32,000 nt of DNA from Coprobacillaceae bacterium. Its GTDB lineage: Bacteria > Bacillota_I > Bacilli_A > Erysipelotrichales > Coprobacillaceae. The stretch lies in contig OY776328.1 of NCBI GenBank assembly GCA_963675515.1, positions 2,010,001 to 2,042,000 on the forward strand, given 5' to 3'. Both the position numbers and the translations under genes were made by a program. How positions within the stretch are numbered: position 1 is the first letter of the stretch; every line of letters begins with the position of its first letter. This document shows positions 7,527-26,258 of the stretch, piece after piece. Below the pieces are notes generated by a model. It did not search any database, was not told where the DNA came from, and saw nothing but the letters and a program-made list of their open reading frames with translations.

Positions 7527-7592
7527 ACATCTATCTCCTCTCTTTGTTTTGATGATTAGAATATACCAAAACAGGAAGAGCGATTAAATATT

Positions 7593-7608
7593 ATGAAAGC
7601 GTTATGAT
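7593..7608. promoter_or_regulatory. cre-like (CcpA) operator candidate upstream of the PTS operon
   Basis: ATGAAAGCGTTATGAT versus the consensus WTGNAANCGNTTNCAW (2 mismatches; 1 mismatch to the looser TGWAANCGNTNWCA). About 70 nt upstream of the PTS ATG. On the minus strand it sits immediately 5' of a CATAAT -10-like hexamer. Confidence 0.35.
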
Positions 7609-7689
7609 CCGTTGGTCCATAAAAAGACTGAAAACTTTTTGTCATTTGATCAGTTTGGACCAAATAGGGCCCATGAACGCATTACGGGC

Positions 7690-7740
7690 AAAAAAATCTT
7701 CCCGATACAGTTTCGATAACTATATCGGGAAGATTTTTTT
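7690..7740. terminator. Bidirectional intrinsic terminator
   Basis: Perfect 13-bp stem AATCTTCCCGATA / TATCGGGAAGATT (7695-7707 / 7723-7735) with a 15-nt loop, flanked by an A-run on the left and a T-run on the right. It lies immediately after the stop (7746) of the eroded minus-strand ORF. Confidence 0.65.
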
Positions 7741-7745
7741 AACTG

Positions 7746-7935
7746 TTATTTGTCATTATGGTGAAAACACATTTTCCAAGTTTGCCAACACGTCATATTG
7801 AAGAGATTTGAGATCGTTGTTTTAGAAATCCAGCCACCGCCTTCAACAGGTATGACTGGCCGTTGATATAGAAGCCATATTACTTGCAGGTACAGCAAGA
7901 CTTTGGCTGATATCCGCGAAATTGTCGCCTGGTCA
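7746..7935 (-). pseudogene. Short-chain dehydrogenase/reductase (SDR) 3'-terminal remnant with frameshifts
   Basis: The SDR C-terminal signature (P-x-DIA...FLAS..ASYITGQ.I.VDGG) is recoverable only by joining three minus-strand frames: ADISQSLAVPASNMAS / FYINGQ / IPVEGGGW. No N-terminal Rossmann part is present upstream. Confidence 0.35.
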
Positions 7936-8024
7936 TTCAAATGTAACCATTTATCGTTAGGATGATTGTTCAGTTAGAAATATCAAGGTCATTTTGACCA
8001 CTTATTGACAATTCACTTTCCTGG

Positions 8025-8216
8025 TTATTTCGCCTTATCATTCAGAAGTGGAATCAAGAAGAAAATGCAGCCAAACAGAAACAATATTCCACCGAAAAGA
8101 CTGATCATGTCTCCCGCTTTTAAACTTGCGGTAATGTATACCAAACTGCACAAGACAAACATCGTCCATCCTATGATATGAAAGTGTCTTTCTGTCTTCG
8201 GTAAAATCCGTTTCAT
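8025..8216 (-). CDS. Small two-TM membrane protein (63 aa), function unknown
   Basis: ORF with AAGGAG 11 nt upstream of the ATG and two clear hydrophobic helices (IIGWTMFVLCSLVYITA; ISLFGGILFLFGCIFFLIPLL). Confidence 0.45.
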   Translation of the reverse strand: MKRILPKTERHFHIIGWTMFVLCSLVYITASLKAGDMISLFGGILFLFGCIFFLIPLLNDKAK

Positions 8217-8371
8217 TACAATACAAACTCCTTATCTATGATATTTATAATCCATTAATATTTGTATCCTGAATACTCAGGATAATTGCTTTCGAACATA
8301 ACCCAACTAGCGCACCATGAAAATCATAGCACAATCTTAAAAGGTCTGTCCAAAAAATATCTTACAACCCC

Positions 8372-9207
8372 TTACTTGGTTTTCAAATCAAGAATTTCTT
8401 TTGCCGCATCGATGGTGGTCTGGTAGTTTTTCACCAATAAGGCGGAAAAAAGAATATCAAGGACATAGTTTACCGAAATGAAAGCATAGACCACCTCAAG
8501 ACCAGGGGGAAGTTTTTCAAATCAAGTTCGATGTACTCGCTGCAATGGGGTTTCAATTCAAGCTGGTCGTTCCCTCCGATACCGATGACAACATTCTTCT
8601 GCCCTTTCATGTATTTGGCGACTTCGACAGCGTGCTTGTTGCCTCCGGTAAATGAGATGACCACGATTGTTTCCTCAATGTTTTCTTTTTTTGACACCAC
8701 ATAATGTTCATTGATTCCCGCATAGGCCTGGCTTTCGATACCAAGCGTCATGAATTTGAATGCGGCCGCCCGGGCCAGGGTGTGGGTTATACCGATTCCA
8801 TAAAGACTTATCTTGCTCGACTTGCTTAGCTGGTTGATTACCCTGACCATCACATTGTGATCGAGATTAAGCTTTGTCTGGGTCACCGCAGTTTCGTAGA
8901 TGCTGGGAACAATATTGATGATTTCCTTATAGGTGCTGTTTGCCTTGATCGGGATGTCGTCGACCATCCCGGAAATGCGATACAGCTCAGTGATTTCGGA
9001 TTCCAAAATCCTTTTGAAATCTTTATAGCTATTCGCCCCCACCTTCCGAGTCAGCCTGATTACTGAAGCCTTGGATGAGAAAGTGTTATTGGCAAGACTT
9101 TGAGCTGAAAGTTCATGAATTTCTGAAATGTTTTGGAGGATATATTCAGCTATGGAGCGTTCGATATCCGTAAAATCTTCCATTTCCTTCAATTGATTGA
9201 TAATCAT
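8372..9207 (-). pseudogene. RpiR/MurR-family transcriptional regulator (HTH_6 + SIS) disrupted by a 1-nt frameshift near its 3' end
   Basis: The true start is the ATG at 9207 (GGAGGAGG RBS), not the track start 9324. The HTH region is SAQSLANNTFSSKASVIRLTRKVGANSYKDFK and the SIS region is ISLYGIGITH...VISFTGGN. The track frame stops at 8470. The family-typical C-terminus (LEVVYAFISVNYVLDILFSALLVKNYQTTIDAAKEILDLKTK*) continues in the -1 frame to the TAA at 8372-8374. The shift maps to the G5 (8505-8509) / T5 (8513-8517) homopolymers. Confidence 0.8.
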
Positions 9208-21131: not shown

Positions 21132-21794
21132 ATGATAAAAAGAATTTTCTTCTACTTTGCCGGAATCCTGATTTTGGGACTGGGCATCGTCTTGAACACG
21201 AAGACCGGGCTGGGTGTTGCCGCCATAAACTCATTTCCTTATGCCACAGCCCAGATGAGCGGTCTTACCCTGGGCAATGCGACCACCATCCTTTATGTCG
21301 CCTTCATTCTCGCCCAGCTGCTTATCTACCGCAACGTGGCCATCAAGGTCCTGCTGCAGATCCCTTTTTCATATTTCATGGGAATGATCATCGACTTTTA
21401 CGACCGGCTTATTGTCATCGAAAACCCGGAAATGGCATGGGCGCTGGCCTTGCTTCTTGGAGCGATAATGCTTACGGCTCTTGGAGCATATATGGTTGTG
21501 GCCATGGATTTTGTGCCCAATCCGGCAGACGGGCTGGTCAACGCCATTGCCAAGAAAATCGACAGGGAGTTTGGAAAGACCAAGCTGATGTTCGACTGTG
21601 TCATGATCATGACGACCATAACCGTCTCCCTTATGTTCGCAGGACATCTTATCGGGATCGGAATCGGTACGATCGTTTCAGCAGCAATGATTGGCAACAT
21701 CATCGTCCTTTACAGCCGATTATTCAACAGCTACTTCAAAAAAGTTGTCGATGATTCCATCAAGAATAGCGAATTTGAAAAAAGTGAGGCCTGA
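21132..21794 (+). CDS. YczE/YyaS/YitT-family membrane protein
   Basis: 220 aa. Family-typical N-terminus FFYFAGILILGLGIVLNTKTGLGVAAINSFPY and about 6 TM segments. GGAGG RBS. Confidence 0.7.
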   Translation: MIKRIFFYFAGILILGLGIVLNTKTGLGVAAINSFPYATAQMSGLTLGNATTILYVAFILAQLLIYRNVAIKVLLQIPFSYFMGMIIDFYDRLIVIENPEMAWALALLLGAIMLTALGAYMVVAMDFVPNPADGLVNAIAKKIDREFGKTKLMFDCVMIMTTITVSLMFAGHLIGIGIGTIVSAAMIGNIIVLYSRLFNSYFKKVVDDSIKNSEFEKSEA

Positions 21795-21875: not shown

Positions 21876-21904
21876 TTGAAATATTTTTACGATTGTTCTA
21901 TAAT
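21876..21904 (+). promoter_or_regulatory. Near-consensus sigma-70 promoter for tRNA-Thr
   Basis: TTGAAA (21876-21881), 17-nt spacer, TATAAT (21899-21904), 8 nt before the tRNA 5' end. Confidence 0.6.
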
Positions 21905-21912
21905 GTTCTTAC

Positions 21913-21988
21913 GCCGTTGTAGCTCAGCTGGTAGAGCAGGCCCATGGTAAGGGTCAGGTCGCAGGTTCAATTCCTGTCATCGGCACCA
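21913..21988 (+). tRNA. tRNA-Thr, anticodon GGU, CCA encoded
   Basis: Hand-folded cloverleaf. Acceptor GCCGTTG/CATCGGC (one U-U mismatch), D arm GCTC-AGCTGGTA-GAGC, anticodon stem GGCCC/GGGTC with loop AT-GGT-AA, T arm GCAGG-TTCAATT-CCTGT, discriminator A + CCA. Confidence 0.9.
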
Positions 21989-22002: not shown

Positions 22003-22030
22003 GAGCCTCCCATTTCAGGGGGCTTTTTTT
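22003..22030 (+). terminator. Intrinsic terminator after tRNA-Thr
   Basis: AGCCTCC-loop-GGGGGCT (G-U wobble included) followed by T7. Confidence 0.6.
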
Positions 22031-22121: not shown

Positions 22122-23366
22122 TCATCTGACAATTCTGCGAAGCAAGGTTCCTGCGGTCACAGTCATAAGCAAACCGCCAAAAAACATCTGAACGAAACTG
22201 AAAAAACTTGAGGCGAATCCGATTGCCTGCATATTGCCATATCCAACTGTCGTAAATGTCATCATTGAAAAGTATAGACAATAACCATAATCACTTATCA
22301 ACTCGACCAGGTTTTCCTTTCCCATAAAAATGGAAAGCAGTTCGTACCTTATGGTATGGATATGCGACAGGCCCGGCCCGCTGACCTGCAAGCCAGTCAG
22401 ATAAATGATTCCAAAGATGAAAATTGTCCCCAGTGACCAGAAAAGTCCCCTATGCCACTTTTCTCCATACCCATTCAACATTTTGATGAAGATTGAAAAC
22501 AGACGCGCTCTTCCTTCCAGGGTGAAATACAGCAAGGATTTGTATATGTAATAATAATCGCCTACCAGGTTCGCATCGAAATCATTACTGTTATAGTAAG
22601 AATATATTTCTTCATACGATTTGAGCAACCCGAAAAAATCGTGATTGTCATCCCTGTTTTTTACCAGAAATTTGATTTCTTTGTACTCGGGGAATTTTGT
22701 GTGTTCATCCAGACTTACTTTAAAATTATTGATTGTTTCATCGTAGTAAGAAAGTCTTACTCGCTCTTCGCATCGGAATTTGATTGCGAATTTCTTTATT
22801 ACATTTTCAAATTTTGCGAAGTCCAGTTTGGTCCTGTTGTAGAACTCAACATTATCGAATTGGCATCGGTCAAATATTGCATATTTCAAGTTCACATCAT
22901 TGAAATCCACAATGAAAAATTGGACTTCATCGAAATTGATATCTGATTTGACTTCCCTCGGTCCACCCCTTAATCTATGCAGGCTCCCTCTATTTTTACT
23001 TATTATATCTGTGGGGGCTAACGGATTTTGATTGCAACTTATGAATTGGGTGGTAGTCAATTTGCTTCGATTGAAATGCACATCCAATGTGGATTTAGAA
23101 AAAATACCTGCGGTAATTTGACAATTATCAAACAATCCCTCCTGGATATTGACATTTTTGAACTTGCATCCATTGAACACACATCCACTGAAAGAAACAT
23201 TTTTGATATCGATTTTCTCAAACGTGCATTTATCAAATTTCAAATCCACAAACTTCGCATCAAAGAATGGCCTGTCGAACACCATATTTGTATGAGTTCC
23301 AGTACTGCAGATTTGCCCGATAACCTCACCTGAACATTCAATTAATTCATCACTAATGTCGCTCAT
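22122..23366 (-). CDS. Pentapeptide-repeat domain fused to a two-TM potassium-channel pore (TVGYG filter)
   Basis: 414 aa with RBS GGAGGA. Two blocks of 5-residue repeats are present (CTFEK IDIKN VSFSG CVFNG CKFKN VNIQE GLFDN CQITA; INFDE VQFFI VDFND VNLKY AIFDR CQFDN VEFYN). The C-terminus has TM1 LFWSLGTIFIFGIIYLTGL, pore helix plus filter FSMMTFTTVGYGN, and TM2 FFSFVQMFFGGLLMTVTAG. Confidence 0.8.
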   Translation of the reverse strand: MSDISDELIECSGEVIGQICSTGTHTNMVFDRPFFDAKFVDLKFDKCTFEKIDIKNVSFSGCVFNGCKFKNVNIQEGLFDNCQITAGIFSKSTLDVHFNRSKLTTTQFISCNQNPLAPTDIISKNRGSLHRLRGGPREVKSDINFDEVQFFIVDFNDVNLKYAIFDRCQFDNVEFYNRTKLDFAKFENVIKKFAIKFRCEERVRLSYYDETINNFKVSLDEHTKFPEYKEIKFLVKNRDDNHDFFGLLKSYEEIYSYYNSNDFDANLVGDYYYIYKSLLYFTLEGRARLFSIFIKMLNGYGEKWHRGLFWSLGTIFIFGIIYLTGLQVSGPGLSHIHTIRYELLSIFMGKENLVELISDYGYCLYFSMMTFTTVGYGNMQAIGFASSFFSFVQMFFGGLLMTVTAGTLLRRIVR

Positions 23367-23434
23367 TTACAGTCCTCCATCAAATCCAGGTAGTCTCAAA
23401 ACCATTAAGTCATTATAATTTACAGGACAACCGC

Positions 23435-24389: not shown

Positions 24390-25394
24390 TTACGGTCGAT
24401 TGCGTTGTTTCCTTTGCCTGGTTTTCATTCTTGCAATGATGATTATCCCCACAACAACACAGATACCAGTGGCAATGACCGCCGCCTTTGCCAGTGTGAA
24501 TCGCAGTTCAAAACTTCTATAGGCTTTGTCTCCGGCCGCAACTGTCACATCACTGAACATTTCCCTCATCGATACGACCCTCTCCTCTTTTTTGATTTGT
24601 TCATATATATTGAACCGGGCCGCCTCGTCGAATTGTGACATGTAGTAGAACACCGAATCGCCGCTGCTCAAGTCAGTGACCGATGAGATCATGGTATAGG
24701 TTGTCAGGGTATTGAGACTGACCTTGTTTAAAATATCCGACGCCTTATGTCCCAGGTCTTGCGTATCAAGATCTTCAAGCATTTCTTCCACCGTTTCATA
24801 TCTGCCATCCTGATATCCGCTGGTAGGATTGGCCAGATTGAAATTCGTGGAAATCAGATGGCCATCGCCGCTTGGCTTCCAGCTGTAAACCAGCTTTCCT
24901 TGCGCGCCCGGGCTGATGACAACAGCCACGCCCGACTTGTCGGCGATATGGATCTGCATCTTCATATCGGCCCAGAACTCGAACTTCTCCGCAAGTGCCA
25001 CCGCTTCTTCTACCGATGCGACCTCATGCTCCAGCATGGAAAAATAGTTGTCCTCATCAATATTGTATTGCTTGTCTTGTTCGTATGTCATTTTTGTGGC
25101 TGGGATGCTGTTTATCGCCCAGGCCAGGCCCTGATCGTTGATTGCCGATTGGAACCCCAGCACTCCATCAACCATGTAGCCGATTTTCATCACCCCGTAA
25201 CTCCCGCTGGTGCCCGGTGAAAAGCCCAGGTAAAGGTCGCCGGAATGCCAGTCTTCATTGCTTGCAAAGTAAACCTGCTCGCCTTTTTGCACTGTGAATA
25301 TCGTACAGGAATCGCCAGGGCTGGACAGCCGATTGAAAACAAGTCCTGCAATCAGACCGACAGCAATCACGGATATCGCCAATGGTTTGTCCAT
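24390..25394 (-). CDS. Cys-Ntn hydrolase of the choloylglycine hydrolase/penicillin V acylase (linear amide C-N hydrolase) type, with N- and C-terminal membrane anchors
   Basis: Start set at the ATG at 25394 (GGAGGTG RBS). An N-terminal TM (AISVIAVGLIAGLVF) precedes CTIFTVQKGEQVYFASNEDW (compare BSH/PVA CT....YFGRN.D) and AINDQGLA. The C-terminal TM is AAVIATGICVVVGIIIIA followed by a basic tail. Confidence 0.6.
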   Translation of the reverse strand: MDKPLAISVIAVGLIAGLVFNRLSSPGDSCTIFTVQKGEQVYFASNEDWHSGDLYLGFSPGTSGSYGVMKIGYMVDGVLGFQSAINDQGLAWAINSIPATKMTYEQDKQYNIDEDNYFSMLEHEVASVEEAVALAEKFEFWADMKMQIHIADKSGVAVVISPGAQGKLVYSWKPSGDGHLISTNFNLANPTSGYQDGRYETVEEMLEDLDTQDLGHKASDILNKVSLNTLTTYTMISSVTDLSSGDSVFYYMSQFDEAARFNIYEQIKKEERVVSMREMFSDVTVAAGDKAYRSFELRFTLAKAAVIATGICVVVGIIIIARMKTRQRKQRNRP

Positions 25395-25571
25395 GAAGTC
25401 ACCTCCAAAAAATCTTAGTTTACTTATATTTAAACAAGTCGCCAATAGAAGGCATTTTCTATGGACCGAAATTCAATCCTTTCCTGGTCTGATGTAGTCG
25501 TAACACTTTCAGGAACACCGTACCTTTGAGATTTGGATGACAAATCACATCATTATCTGCAAGCCGATTTA

Positions 25572-25793
25572 TTATCTGGACAGAACTGCTCCAGAAAGTA
25601 TACGTCCCATCACCAGAAGAAGCAACAGGCAAATGCCAAGATACCCAAGAATGAATGCCAGAAAGACTACGTCATCACGGCTGATCGAATGGAGGTCGAG
25701 ACCATTTGTGATTTCTATGGCCAGATTAAAATATGCATAGGTTCAAGCCAGGACAACTGCCGCATTGATGATATATTGTTTTGCCCGTCTCAC
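25572..25793 (-). pseudogene. Small (73-codon) two-TM membrane ORF interrupted by an in-frame TGA at codon 17
   Basis: GTG start at 25793 with AAGGAGGG 7 nt upstream. Reads VRRAKQYIINAAVVLA-TGA-TYAYFNLAIEITNGLDLHSISRDDVVFLAFILGYLGICLLLLLVMGRILSGAVLSR-TAA. There is no alternative start after the TGA. Confidence 0.3.
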
Positions 25794-26009
25794 TTCTTTA
25801 CCCTCCTTGATCATAGCGCTTTGGAAAATTTGAAATTCCCCCAAAAAATAGAATCCATTATTCAATATCATTATCGCCCTTTATGGCAAATCATGCAAGT
25901 AATCATTCAAAAAGGAAGATATTTGGAGTGGATAATGGTAAAATTAAGTTACAAGGCAAACATCATGTGTTGCCTGCAGCAACATCAGCTAACCAAGGAG
26001 GATTTTACC

Positions 26010-26258
26010 ATGTTGAAGACAAATAAGATTGCCGATTTCCAGGAAAAAGTCGATTTCGAAGAAGATGTAGTCAGTGCCATCACCGAGAACCTCAAAGATA
26101 TCAGTCATCTCCAAACCATGCTCGACCAGTCACTCGAAGAAGGCGAATCCGACTACCGGGTCCGCCTGCTGGAATCCCATATGAGCGTGCTTATCAACCA
26201 GAACTGGCTGATAATCGACCAGCTGGCCAAACTAAACAAGAAACTGGAAGACAAATGA
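26010..26258 (+). CDS. Hypothetical 82-aa acidic coiled-coil protein
   Basis: ATG at 26010 preceded by AAGGAGG (7-nt spacing). The rest of the 241-aa track ORF upstream has no coding character. Confidence 0.5.
   Translation: MLKTNKIADFQEKVDFEEDVVSAITENLKDISHLQTMLDQSLEEGESDYRVRLLESHMSVLINQNWLIIDQLAKLNKKLEDK

Follow-up and report, generated by a model that had tools for sequence, protein, structure and literature searches.

A pentapeptide-repeat protein fused to a K+ channel pore: a candidate single-gene defence channel from a Coprobacillaceae bacterium

HalA, the effector of the anti-phage system Hailong, is a homotetrameric membrane channel in which a cytoplasmic crown gates the pore (PMC13434031). 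The crown binds 5-nucleotide (nt) oligo-dA at subunit interfaces, the oligo-dA is made by HalB, an adjacent nucleotidyltransferase, and removal of the DNA by a phage exonuclease opens HalA, with Na+ inflow and depolarisation (PMC13434031). The gene analysed here lies in a stretch of 32,000 nt from a Coprobacillaceae bacterium (contig OY776328.1, positions 2,010,001 to 2,042,000; hereafter the window) and encodes a fusion of a pentapeptide-repeat protein (PRP) with a K+ channel pore. Among characterised proteins HalA was its nearest analogue, by architecture as well as by PRP sequence. The window protein is not a HalA, because the score against the HalA model failed, HalB is absent and the pore is of the K+ type. 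An earlier note on this stretch had named no characterised member of the architecture; HalA (PDB 9nyi), a characterised channel with a PRP-like crown, supersedes that statement, and no description of HalA as a DNA mimic was met with. The window protein is read here, at a little under even confidence, as a stand-alone sensor-effector channel in conflicts with phages or mobile elements.

Three further groups of proteins were compared. PRPs of the Qnr, MfpA and AlbG type share with the window protein a right-handed quadrilateral beta-helix with central F/L pentads and gave the best PDB matches for its N-terminal half; those proteins are soluble, acidic, gyrase-binding dimers, whereas the window PRP is near neutral and is fused to a membrane pore. 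Known PRPs target topoisomerases, the known DNA mimics among them are markedly acidic, and B-DNA mimicry is a property of a rod-like PRP dimer. Two-transmembrane (2-TM) channels of the KcsA and KirBac type share with the window protein the succession of TM1, pore helix, TVGYG filter and TM2, with a glycine ~20 residues after the filter, and KirBac has a slide helix before TM1, where the window protein has a cytoplasmic interfacial segment. KcsA carries a C-terminal helix bundle and KirBac an Ig-like domain, whereas the window protein is without any C-terminal cytoplasmic domain, which leaves the N-terminal PRP module and the family-specific GYGE(K/R)W segment as the only possible source of regulation. 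The eukaryotic protein KCTD9 (BTB/T1 domain plus pentapeptide repeats) combines a K+-channel-related oligomerisation theme with a PRP domain, but it is a cullin adaptor without a pore, unrelated in sequence and function, and the parallel is superficial only.

Architecture of the fusion protein

The 414-amino-acid (aa) protein was 100% identical to one database entry (P0001). It was searched with Pfam hidden Markov models (HMMs), and Pentapeptide_4 was matched by residues 34-108 (E 8e-13, 48.7 bits, cutoff 38) and Ion_trans_2 (PF07885) by residues 350-413 (E 3.1e-8, 33.8 bits, cutoff 22.5). The cutoffs of Pentapeptide and Pentapeptide_3 were likewise passed (28.1 versus 20.2 and 28.2 versus 27 bits; PF13599/PF00805/PF13576). 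A full model was made as an AlphaFold2 monomer on 13 homologues (mean predicted local distance difference test score, pLDDT, 82; predicted template modelling score, pTM, 0.72), and was ordered as N-terminal helix, block 1, short helix and loop, block 2, four helices, TM1, external hairpin, pore helix and TM2. The HMM searches, the register of the repeats and the model together confirmed the two-block PRP and the K+ pore with TTVGYGN filter that the earlier note had described. Residue ranges and positions in the window are collected in Table 1.

In block 1 the central residue was F, I, L or V in 15 of 17 pentads. The PRP half was modelled as a right-handed quadrilateral beta-helix (pLDDT ~90), and its best matches in Foldseek were AlbG, MfpA and QnrB1. 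The insert between the two blocks was variable in length or missing among homologues. Net charge over residues 1-225 was ~-2 (30 K/R, 32 D/E), a sequence proxy for the PRP region, and ranged from -7 to +8 in the close family; the near-neutral value speaks against B-DNA mimicry and would fit ligand binding. The helices of the linker between beta-helix and TM1 recurred when the C-terminal part (residues 226-414) was modelled alone, and Y273 and K276 of the linker were invariant in the close family. Neither a signal sequence nor a TM segment was found at the N-terminus, and basic residues stood beside the cytoplasmic ends of TM1 (KWHRG) and TM2 (RRIVR); for these reasons the PRP module is placed in the cytoplasm.

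The C-terminal part was assigned to the K+ channel pores by its TVGYG signature after the pore helix and its two flanking TM helices (304-324 and 384-413). When the pore-only model (residues 226-414, pLDDT 82) was searched with Foldseek, the top 50 PDB matches were canonical K+ channels only, among them SKOR, GORK, Kv4, GIRK2 and KirBac3.1, the last with a root-mean-square deviation of 3.5-3.7 A over 104-111 columns. Weak Foldseek E-values are expected for a small helical domain; those obtained were weak (0.01-0.1), yet the matches were uniform and consistent with Pfam. The family profile matched Lmo2059, KirBac, KcsA and NaK-type chains of the PDB through the pore, and a phmmer alignment ran across the filter of plant KAT3 and other K+ channels. 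The protein is presumably one subunit of a tetrameric KcsA-type 2-TM K+ channel. The protein does not fall into the Kir/KirBac group, as no Ig-like domain follows TM2.

Two features bear on gating. G397 lies ~20 residues past the filter and is at least 90% conserved in 110 sequences; the gating-hinge glycine is G99 in KcsA and G83 in MthK, and by its position relative to these G397 is a putative gating hinge. The C-terminus (R414) comes immediately past TM2, and with no residues beyond it the inner-helix bundle crossing must be controlled from the N-terminal module by way of the linker helices and of GYGEKW. GYGEKW would thus be the element that couples the module to the gate, in place of the KirBac slide helix.

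The resemblance to HalA was examined by sequence and by structure. The best NCBIfam match of the window protein was HalA (NF051894; E 5.3e-7), at 29.1 bits against a cutoff of 250 bits, and it covered the PRP region only, with residues 26-112 of the query aligned to positions 54-146 of the 338-position profile. The HalA model was matched by 73 of 110 family members (best E 2.9e-15), as against 16 for the Qnr model. The family profile matched the PDB chain of HalA (9nyi_A) in one stretch only (chain residues 77-154, E 2.7e-9). In Foldseek the full model placed 9nyi_A second (E 3e-5, TM-scores 0.33/0.39), with an alignment of 430 columns against a chain of 333 residues, by far the longest among the 50 matches listed; with the pore-only model, HalA was not among the top 50. 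The two proteins are alike in plan, a cytoplasmic PRP or PRP-like crown at the N-terminus followed by a transmembrane channel at the C-terminus, and also in that Hailong is anti-phage and members of the window protein's family occur in defence islands. They are unlike in score, in the partner gene HalB, which is absent beside the window gene, and apparently in the pore, which in the window protein is a K+ P-loop (TTVGYGN) akin to those of KcsA, KirBac and plant Shaker-type channels. HalA is reported to admit Na+ (PMC13434031), whereas the window pore carries a K+ signature.

The family and its genomic contexts

A word-index search returned 12 homologues (26-48% identity), and a profile-based word-index search made no additions to these first 13 proteins. 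In an exhaustive HMM search, E<=1e-3 was reached by 20,099 proteins and E<=1e-30 by 111 cluster representatives. The representatives were mostly end-to-end matches of 340-460 aa, and most shared one plan, namely PRP, GYGE[KR], TM1, TVGYG filter, TM2 and an end at TM2; KirBac-like channels picked up alongside family members were ~310 aa and had a long C-terminal domain. The gene is not the orphan it had been taken for: it has 12 close homologues and, at greater distance, more than 100 clusters of family members. The family is widespread and already annotated in databases, and its function is unexplained by the annotation; Terrisporobacter members, for example, are annotated as "pentapeptide repeat-containing protein", "ion channel" or "Potassium channel domain-containing protein".

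The motif G[YFH]GE was present in 101 of 112 members of 300-500 aa, ~108 residues from the C-terminus. The last 90 residues contained TVGYG in 91/160 proteins and a close variant in 35/160 (together 126/160), the 160 proteins scanned taking in giant PRP-only matches. G299, G301, E302 and W304 were invariant in 13 close sequences, and in 110 sequences at least 90% conservation was found for G299, G301, E302, T370, T373, G375 and G377 as well as G397. Degenerate filters were also seen: P0012 has TFMVGNYSD, and a protein of 225 aa without a PRP (L012, 9716-10393), which retains GYGEK, has TCTTFGHVEA. K+ selectivity therefore cannot extend to the whole family.

Full-length relatives in the genome collection were nearly all from Clostridia, with Sedimentibacter (48%) followed by Wukongibacter, Clostridium collagenovorans, Ruminococcaceae, Intestinibacillus and Marinisporobacter. 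More distant PRP-channel fusions were found in Bacteroidales, in an unclassified metagenome-assembled genome (MAG) and on a Haladaptatus plasmid; the plasmid collection gave a single match, on an archaeal plasmid. Among the relatives no genomic position was conserved, the distribution was patchy and there was no synteny.

Nineteen independent contexts of family members (loci designated by L-numbers), the window included, were inspected. Defence or mobile-element hallmarks lay within ~8 kb in 12/19, a hand count without matched statistical control that is suggestive, not proven. The hallmarks comprised Lamassu, SIR2, TIR, Lit, KAP/NACHT, type I restriction-modification, a prophage lysis module, conjugative elements and recombinases, and individual loci are given in Table 1. 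No partner conserved across lineages was found in an all-against-all BLAST of the neighbours at 15 loci. Co-occurrences of metallo-beta-lactamase-fold (MBL) proteins, of DUF6198 and of SIR2 were considered as partners and rejected, the pairs not being homologous.

Several neighbours were recorded in their own right. A large SIR2_2 gene stood beside two members (L030, 12676-15693, ~1000 aa; L036, 4934-7429, 831 aa), the two proteins being mutually dissimilar at E<1e-5, and the PADLOC model ThsA was matched by two neighbours in the set. Genes for type IA topoisomerases were next to the members at L043 (5196-7481) and L010 (11746-13431); of the two loci L043 is a conjugative element and L010 possibly another, and these neighbours probably reflect cargo position on the element. 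At L042 (6473-9296) a DUF4062 gene, a UPRTase gene, a 44-aa open reading frame (ORF) and the PRP-channel gene followed each other with overlaps or gaps of <50 nt, which points to an operon and perhaps, in that lineage, to a system of several genes. In Intestinibacillus the solute symporter gene upstream of the channel gene was intact in one genome and broken into fragments in the other (L006, 7855-9450, versus L007, 8606-9609); the channel gene and those downstream of it were conserved in both.

The window locus

The channel gene had 38.0% G+C, the lowest of 26 ORFs, and a G+C content at third codon positions (GC3) of 0.439, the second-lowest of 26; the window as a whole had 46.2% G+C, and most genes had a GC3 of 0.5-0.69, typically ~0.6. 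GC3 is little affected by amino-acid content, and a value of 0.44 against ~0.6 therefore argues for foreign origin. The low G+C reported in the earlier note was thus upheld, with its figure of 33-35% overstated, as such values were reached only in some 100-nt windows of the gene; for the neighbours, to which it had given ~45-53% from sampled lines, the computed values were 52-54% (hyd genes) and 42.6% (MBL gene). The difference from flanking DNA was -0.085, intermediate within the family, in which the gap was widest in higher-G+C hosts and on conjugative elements, two of which reached -0.15 to -0.18. The gene has the look of a single-gene insertion between the MBL gene and tRNA-Thr, acquired horizontally from a Clostridia-type donor of low G+C. 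The window proteins tested were all singletons at 90% identity, and no close relative of the source genome was found in the collections searched.

The tRNA-Thr gene is convergent with the channel gene, as had been noted, and has its own strong promoter (21876-21904, 11/12 positions) and terminator (22003-22025). The suggestion that the tRNA had served as an integration hotspot was not supported. No integrase was found in the window and repeats of the tRNA 3' end were only at chance level (14-25 nt), and a tRNA-targeted island was rejected for want of an integrase and of a flanking repeat of the tRNA 3' end. Of the expression signals proposed for the channel gene, the ribosome-binding site was upheld and the extended -10 was not (Table 1); a consensus promoter scan does not report the TATAAT at 23412-23417 as a promoter. 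No terminator was found between the MBL gene and the channel gene, and co-transcription of the two is therefore possible, as read from the sequence. As a partner the MBL hydrolase is not conserved in the family. Around its nearest homologues (66% identity, Erysipelotrichaceae MAG) there was no channel gene, no tRNA and no synteny with the window, and the MBL near the family member at L042 is unrelated to it.

On the far side of the tRNA, the neighbours were a GFO/IDH/MocA oxidoreductase, RpiR, an AI-2E transporter and DUF6198, followed by tRNA-Thr. Beyond the MBL gene lay two ORFs without a Pfam match (24390-25445, 351 aa; 25533-26258, 241 aa), whose exact sequences were absent from a collection of 15 billion proteins, then MatE, a Lyase_1 enzyme and HydF, and farther in the window SbcCD and a phosphotransferase system (PTS) operon. 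A DDE_Tnp_1 transposase gene (35-1540, 501 aa), 20 kb from the channel gene, was the sole mobile-element gene seen in the window. The Rfam scan returned the tRNA only. A 940-bp stretch of low G+C (7527-8469, ~36%) between the PTS EIIBCA and RpiR genes had no ORF of at least 66 aa and no Rfam match. In Terrisporobacter (L039, 6274-6960) as in the window (21132-21794), a gene for a DUF6198 membrane protein was found at most 1-2 kb from the channel gene; the two proteins were too distant for a tblastn match at 1e-8, and their shared position may be fortuitous or may reflect a weak functional link.

Table 1. Features of the channel gene and its surroundings in the window, and neighbours of family members at other loci
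Feature	Position in window	Strand	Particulars
PRP/K+ channel fusion, whole ORF, 414 aa + stop	22122..23366	(-)	ATG start; Pfam Pentapeptide_4 and Ion_trans_2 above gathering cutoffs
PRP block 1, residues 29-113	23028..23282	(-)	17 pentads, ~4 coils of right-handed beta-helix; AlphaFold2 strands 24-109, pLDDT 89-96; HalA NCBIfam model aligned on residues 26-112
Inter-block insert, residues 114-142	22941..23027	(-)	AlphaFold2 helix 116-124; pLDDT 62-75 over 111-140
PRP block 2, residues 143-202	22761..22940	(-)	12 pentads, shifted register; AlphaFold2 strands 143-196, pLDDT 88-95
Cytoplasmic helical linker, residues 228-297	22476..22685	(-)	Four AlphaFold2 helices (228-236, 241-260, 265-281, 286-297) between beta-helix and TM1
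GYGEKW motif, residues 299-304	22455..22472	(-)	Family signature at cytoplasmic start of TM1
TM1, outer helix, residues 304-324	22395..22457	(-)	AlphaFold2 helix; hydropathy peak 316-324
Pore helix and selectivity filter, residues 353-378	22233..22310	(-)	Pore helix 353-373; Ion_trans_2
TTVGYGN filter, residues 372-378	22233-22253	(-)	Sequence
TM2, inner helix, residues 384-413	22128..22217	(-)	AlphaFold2 helix; conserved G397; protein ends in RRIVR at membrane face
Shine-Dalgarno GGAGGA	23373..23378	(-)	6 nt before ATG, read from sequence
Candidate -10 TATAAT	23412..23417	(-)	Perfect hexamer; no TGn extension, poor -35
tRNA-Thr(GGU)	21913..21988	(+)	ARAGORN; Rfam 61.6 bits; convergent with channel gene, 133-bp gap
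MBL-fold hydrolase, 240 aa	23540..24262	(-)	Pfam Lactamase_B_3, E 6e-30; 173 bp upstream of channel gene, same strand
L030, C. tagluense			HNH, SIR2_2 (996 aa), Lit peptidase U49, IS91
L031, metagenome			HD-CE, DUF4231, KAP NTPase, NACHT
L032, metagenome			Cap4-nuclease-like and SMC_N (LmuA 1e-108, LmuB 1e-200, Lamassu); integrase
L033, metagenome			DDE transposase
L036, metagenome			Adjacent SIR2_2, Mrr_cat-TIR, NTase, transposase
L002, Wukongibacter			Three large serine recombinases, DUF234 ATPase, Fic
L009, Eubacteriales MAG			Prophage baseplate, tail fibre, M15 endolysin, holin, SocA
L004, Ruminococcaceae			Giant SNF2/Eco57I protein, relaxase
L043, metagenome			TraG, RelB/YafQ, TopoIII, IS66, giant SNF2/Eco57I
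L014, Bacteroidales			TIR protein
L010, Marinisporobacter			AAA_2 ATPase, topoisomerase

Proposed function and alternatives

The abortive-infection-like logic of sensor and effector in one protein, put forward in the earlier note, was found plausible from the occurrence of homologues in defence islands, in a prophage and on conjugative elements. The scheme below goes beyond what was shown in four points, all of them inferred: a tetrameric crown, the direction in which it gates the pore, the trigger and a role in defence. Four PRP domains would form a cytoplasmic crown beneath the pore, as in HalA, and the crown would keep the gate shut until a cytoplasmic cue altered its conformation. The cue might be the binding or the loss of a nucleic-acid or protein ligand made or destroyed in infection, and would be passed to the gate through the linker and the GYGEKW segment. 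The channel would then open, K+ would move down its electrochemical gradient and the membrane would be clamped near the K+ equilibrium potential (E_K), and the infected cell would be arrested by loss of K+ and of control over the proton-motive force. A K+-selective pore holds the membrane near E_K, so that the potential is not abolished, and a drain of K+ and disablement of energy-dependent processes are possible. Electrophysiology thus speaks for clamping near E_K, instead of the collapse of membrane potential that had been proposed.

A bolder form of this reading would make the family an unrecognised, widespread single-gene anti-phage system in which the crown senses a phage-derived or phage-depleted ligand, a partner-less, K+-selective counterpart of HalA, and no other K+ channel is known to be gated by a repeat domain of beta-helical fold. 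This form is doubtful, and is offered as a possibility.

A number of observations weigh against a role in conflict, beside the uncontrolled nature of the hand count. No family member was present in 50,697 phage records, in IMG/VR or in BFVD. A literature search found no experimental characterisation of the K+-selective, partner-less GYGE(K/R)W family. PADLOC-DB v2.0.0 gave 0 matches for the protein (E<=1) and 0 for 110 members (E<=1e-3), inclusion of Hailong in that 2023 library not being established. Raw PADLOC counts for the neighbours were rejected as a statistic: the control, made up of neighbours of the KirBac-like channels, matched 112 models as against 59 for the family neighbours, its matches being driven by UvrD-like helicases, IscS and MotB. 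For the enrichment of homologues near defence genes that the earlier note had in view, the hand count is suggestive and the control noisy. In the scan of window ORFs no defence or mobility gene was found within 20 kb of the channel gene. Seven of the 19 contexts looked ordinary (the window, L001, L003, L025, Intestinibacillus L006/L007, Terrisporobacter L039, and L042). In Terrisporobacter the gene was kept in place across species, with 29 members in one 90% cluster and the same neighbours in three contigs, and the two Intestinibacillus species shared downstream synteny, which is core-like behaviour. Finally, family genes were AT-richer than their own flanks in 16/18 loci (mean gap ~-0.05), so that low G+C is partly intrinsic to a protein rich in F, N, K, I and Y and is not evidence of transfer alone.

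The protein might instead be a housekeeping regulated K+ channel, its PRP a cytoplasmic gating or assembly domain like RCK/KTN or the Kir C-terminal domain, which would adjust K+ homeostasis or membrane potential to a metabolite or host protein, with the conflict neighbours incidental; we consider this possible, on balance improbable. It accords with the ordinary metabolism and transport genes around the window copy, with the fixed position in Terrisporobacter species and two Intestinibacillus genomes, with contexts that are not overtly defensive at L001, L003, L025 and L042, with a canonical K+ filter as in physiological channels and with the lack of PADLOC matches. It is opposed by the patchy distribution, the variable position and the lack of synteny, by hallmarks in 12/19 contexts, among them two cargo positions on conjugative elements and one moron position in a prophage, by atypical composition in higher-G+C hosts, and by the identity of the best-matching characterised PRP model, an anti-phage effector. 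The question whether this is a syntenic core gene of ordinary composition was answered in part: composition is atypical and position variable, yet the gene is kept in place in Terrisporobacter and Intestinibacillus.

An unlikely alternative is a true Hailong-like DNA-gated channel, with a short nucleic acid, bound by the crown, that keeps the pore closed and a synthase encoded elsewhere in the genome. HalA was the commonest NCBIfam match in the family, the family profile matched the HalA crown in the PDB, the full-length Foldseek alignment was to 9nyi_A, and a near-neutral PRP with 30 K/R fits ligand binding rather than DNA mimicry; one relative had an NTP_transf_2/Polbeta gene 4.5 kb away, behind a transposase. 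The window protein falls far below the HalA cutoff, however. No nucleotidyltransferase was found among the 20 neighbouring window ORFs scanned, none was adjacent at the other loci examined and no partner was conserved; the HalA pore was unmatched by the family profile and HalA lay outside the top 50 of the pore model, and HalA conducts Na+ (PMC13434031), as against the K+ signature of the window pore.

It is similarly improbable that the protein is a tool of mobile elements that alters host membrane potential for superinfection or entry exclusion, lysis timing or addiction. One member comes directly after the endolysin, holin and SocA genes of a prophage (L009), another is beside three serine recombinases (L002), and others are cargo on two related conjugative elements (L004 and L043), by TopoIII and the giant SNF2/Eco57I gene; viral K+ channels also exist, such as the putative one of Rhizochromulina virus among the BFVD matches. 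The absence of members from the phage and virus collections and the one archaeal plasmid match speak against it, as do the chromosomal islands that make up most contexts and the lack of a mobile element around the window copy. Exclusion is itself a form of defence, and to that extent this alternative overlaps with a conflict channel.

A membrane-anchored DNA mimic of the Qnr/MfpA type, whose PRP would bind gyrase or another DNA enzyme and thereby gate the pore, as the earlier assignment of a DNA-mimic PRP implied, is very improbable: its fold is that of AlbG, Qnr and MfpA, the top PDB matches by profile and by fold, and topoisomerase genes stand beside two members, but the NCBIfam scores are far under their cutoffs (penta_rpt_Qnr 27.4 bits versus 240, MfpA 19.6 versus 360), the PRP is near neutral (-2), the tetrameric geometry that we propose differs from a rod-like dimer, and the topoisomerases are of type IA in conjugative-element cargo, not gyrase.

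The architecture is already catalogued in databases, and the protein is presented as a candidate single-gene defence channel on the strength of architecture and guilt by association. As a mere housekeeping channel it would be of modest interest. As a defence effector it would be a compact one-gene sensor-effector in which the Hailong principle of a crown that gates a channel operates without a signal-making enzyme, and the direct question would be what the crown senses. It would also represent a new kind of cytoplasmic gating module on a canonical K+ pore, and the very small scaffold, with nothing past TM2, should suit structural work. A functional hypothesis would then be available for more than 100 sequence clusters that now carry no label beyond "pentapeptide repeat-containing protein" or "ion channel".

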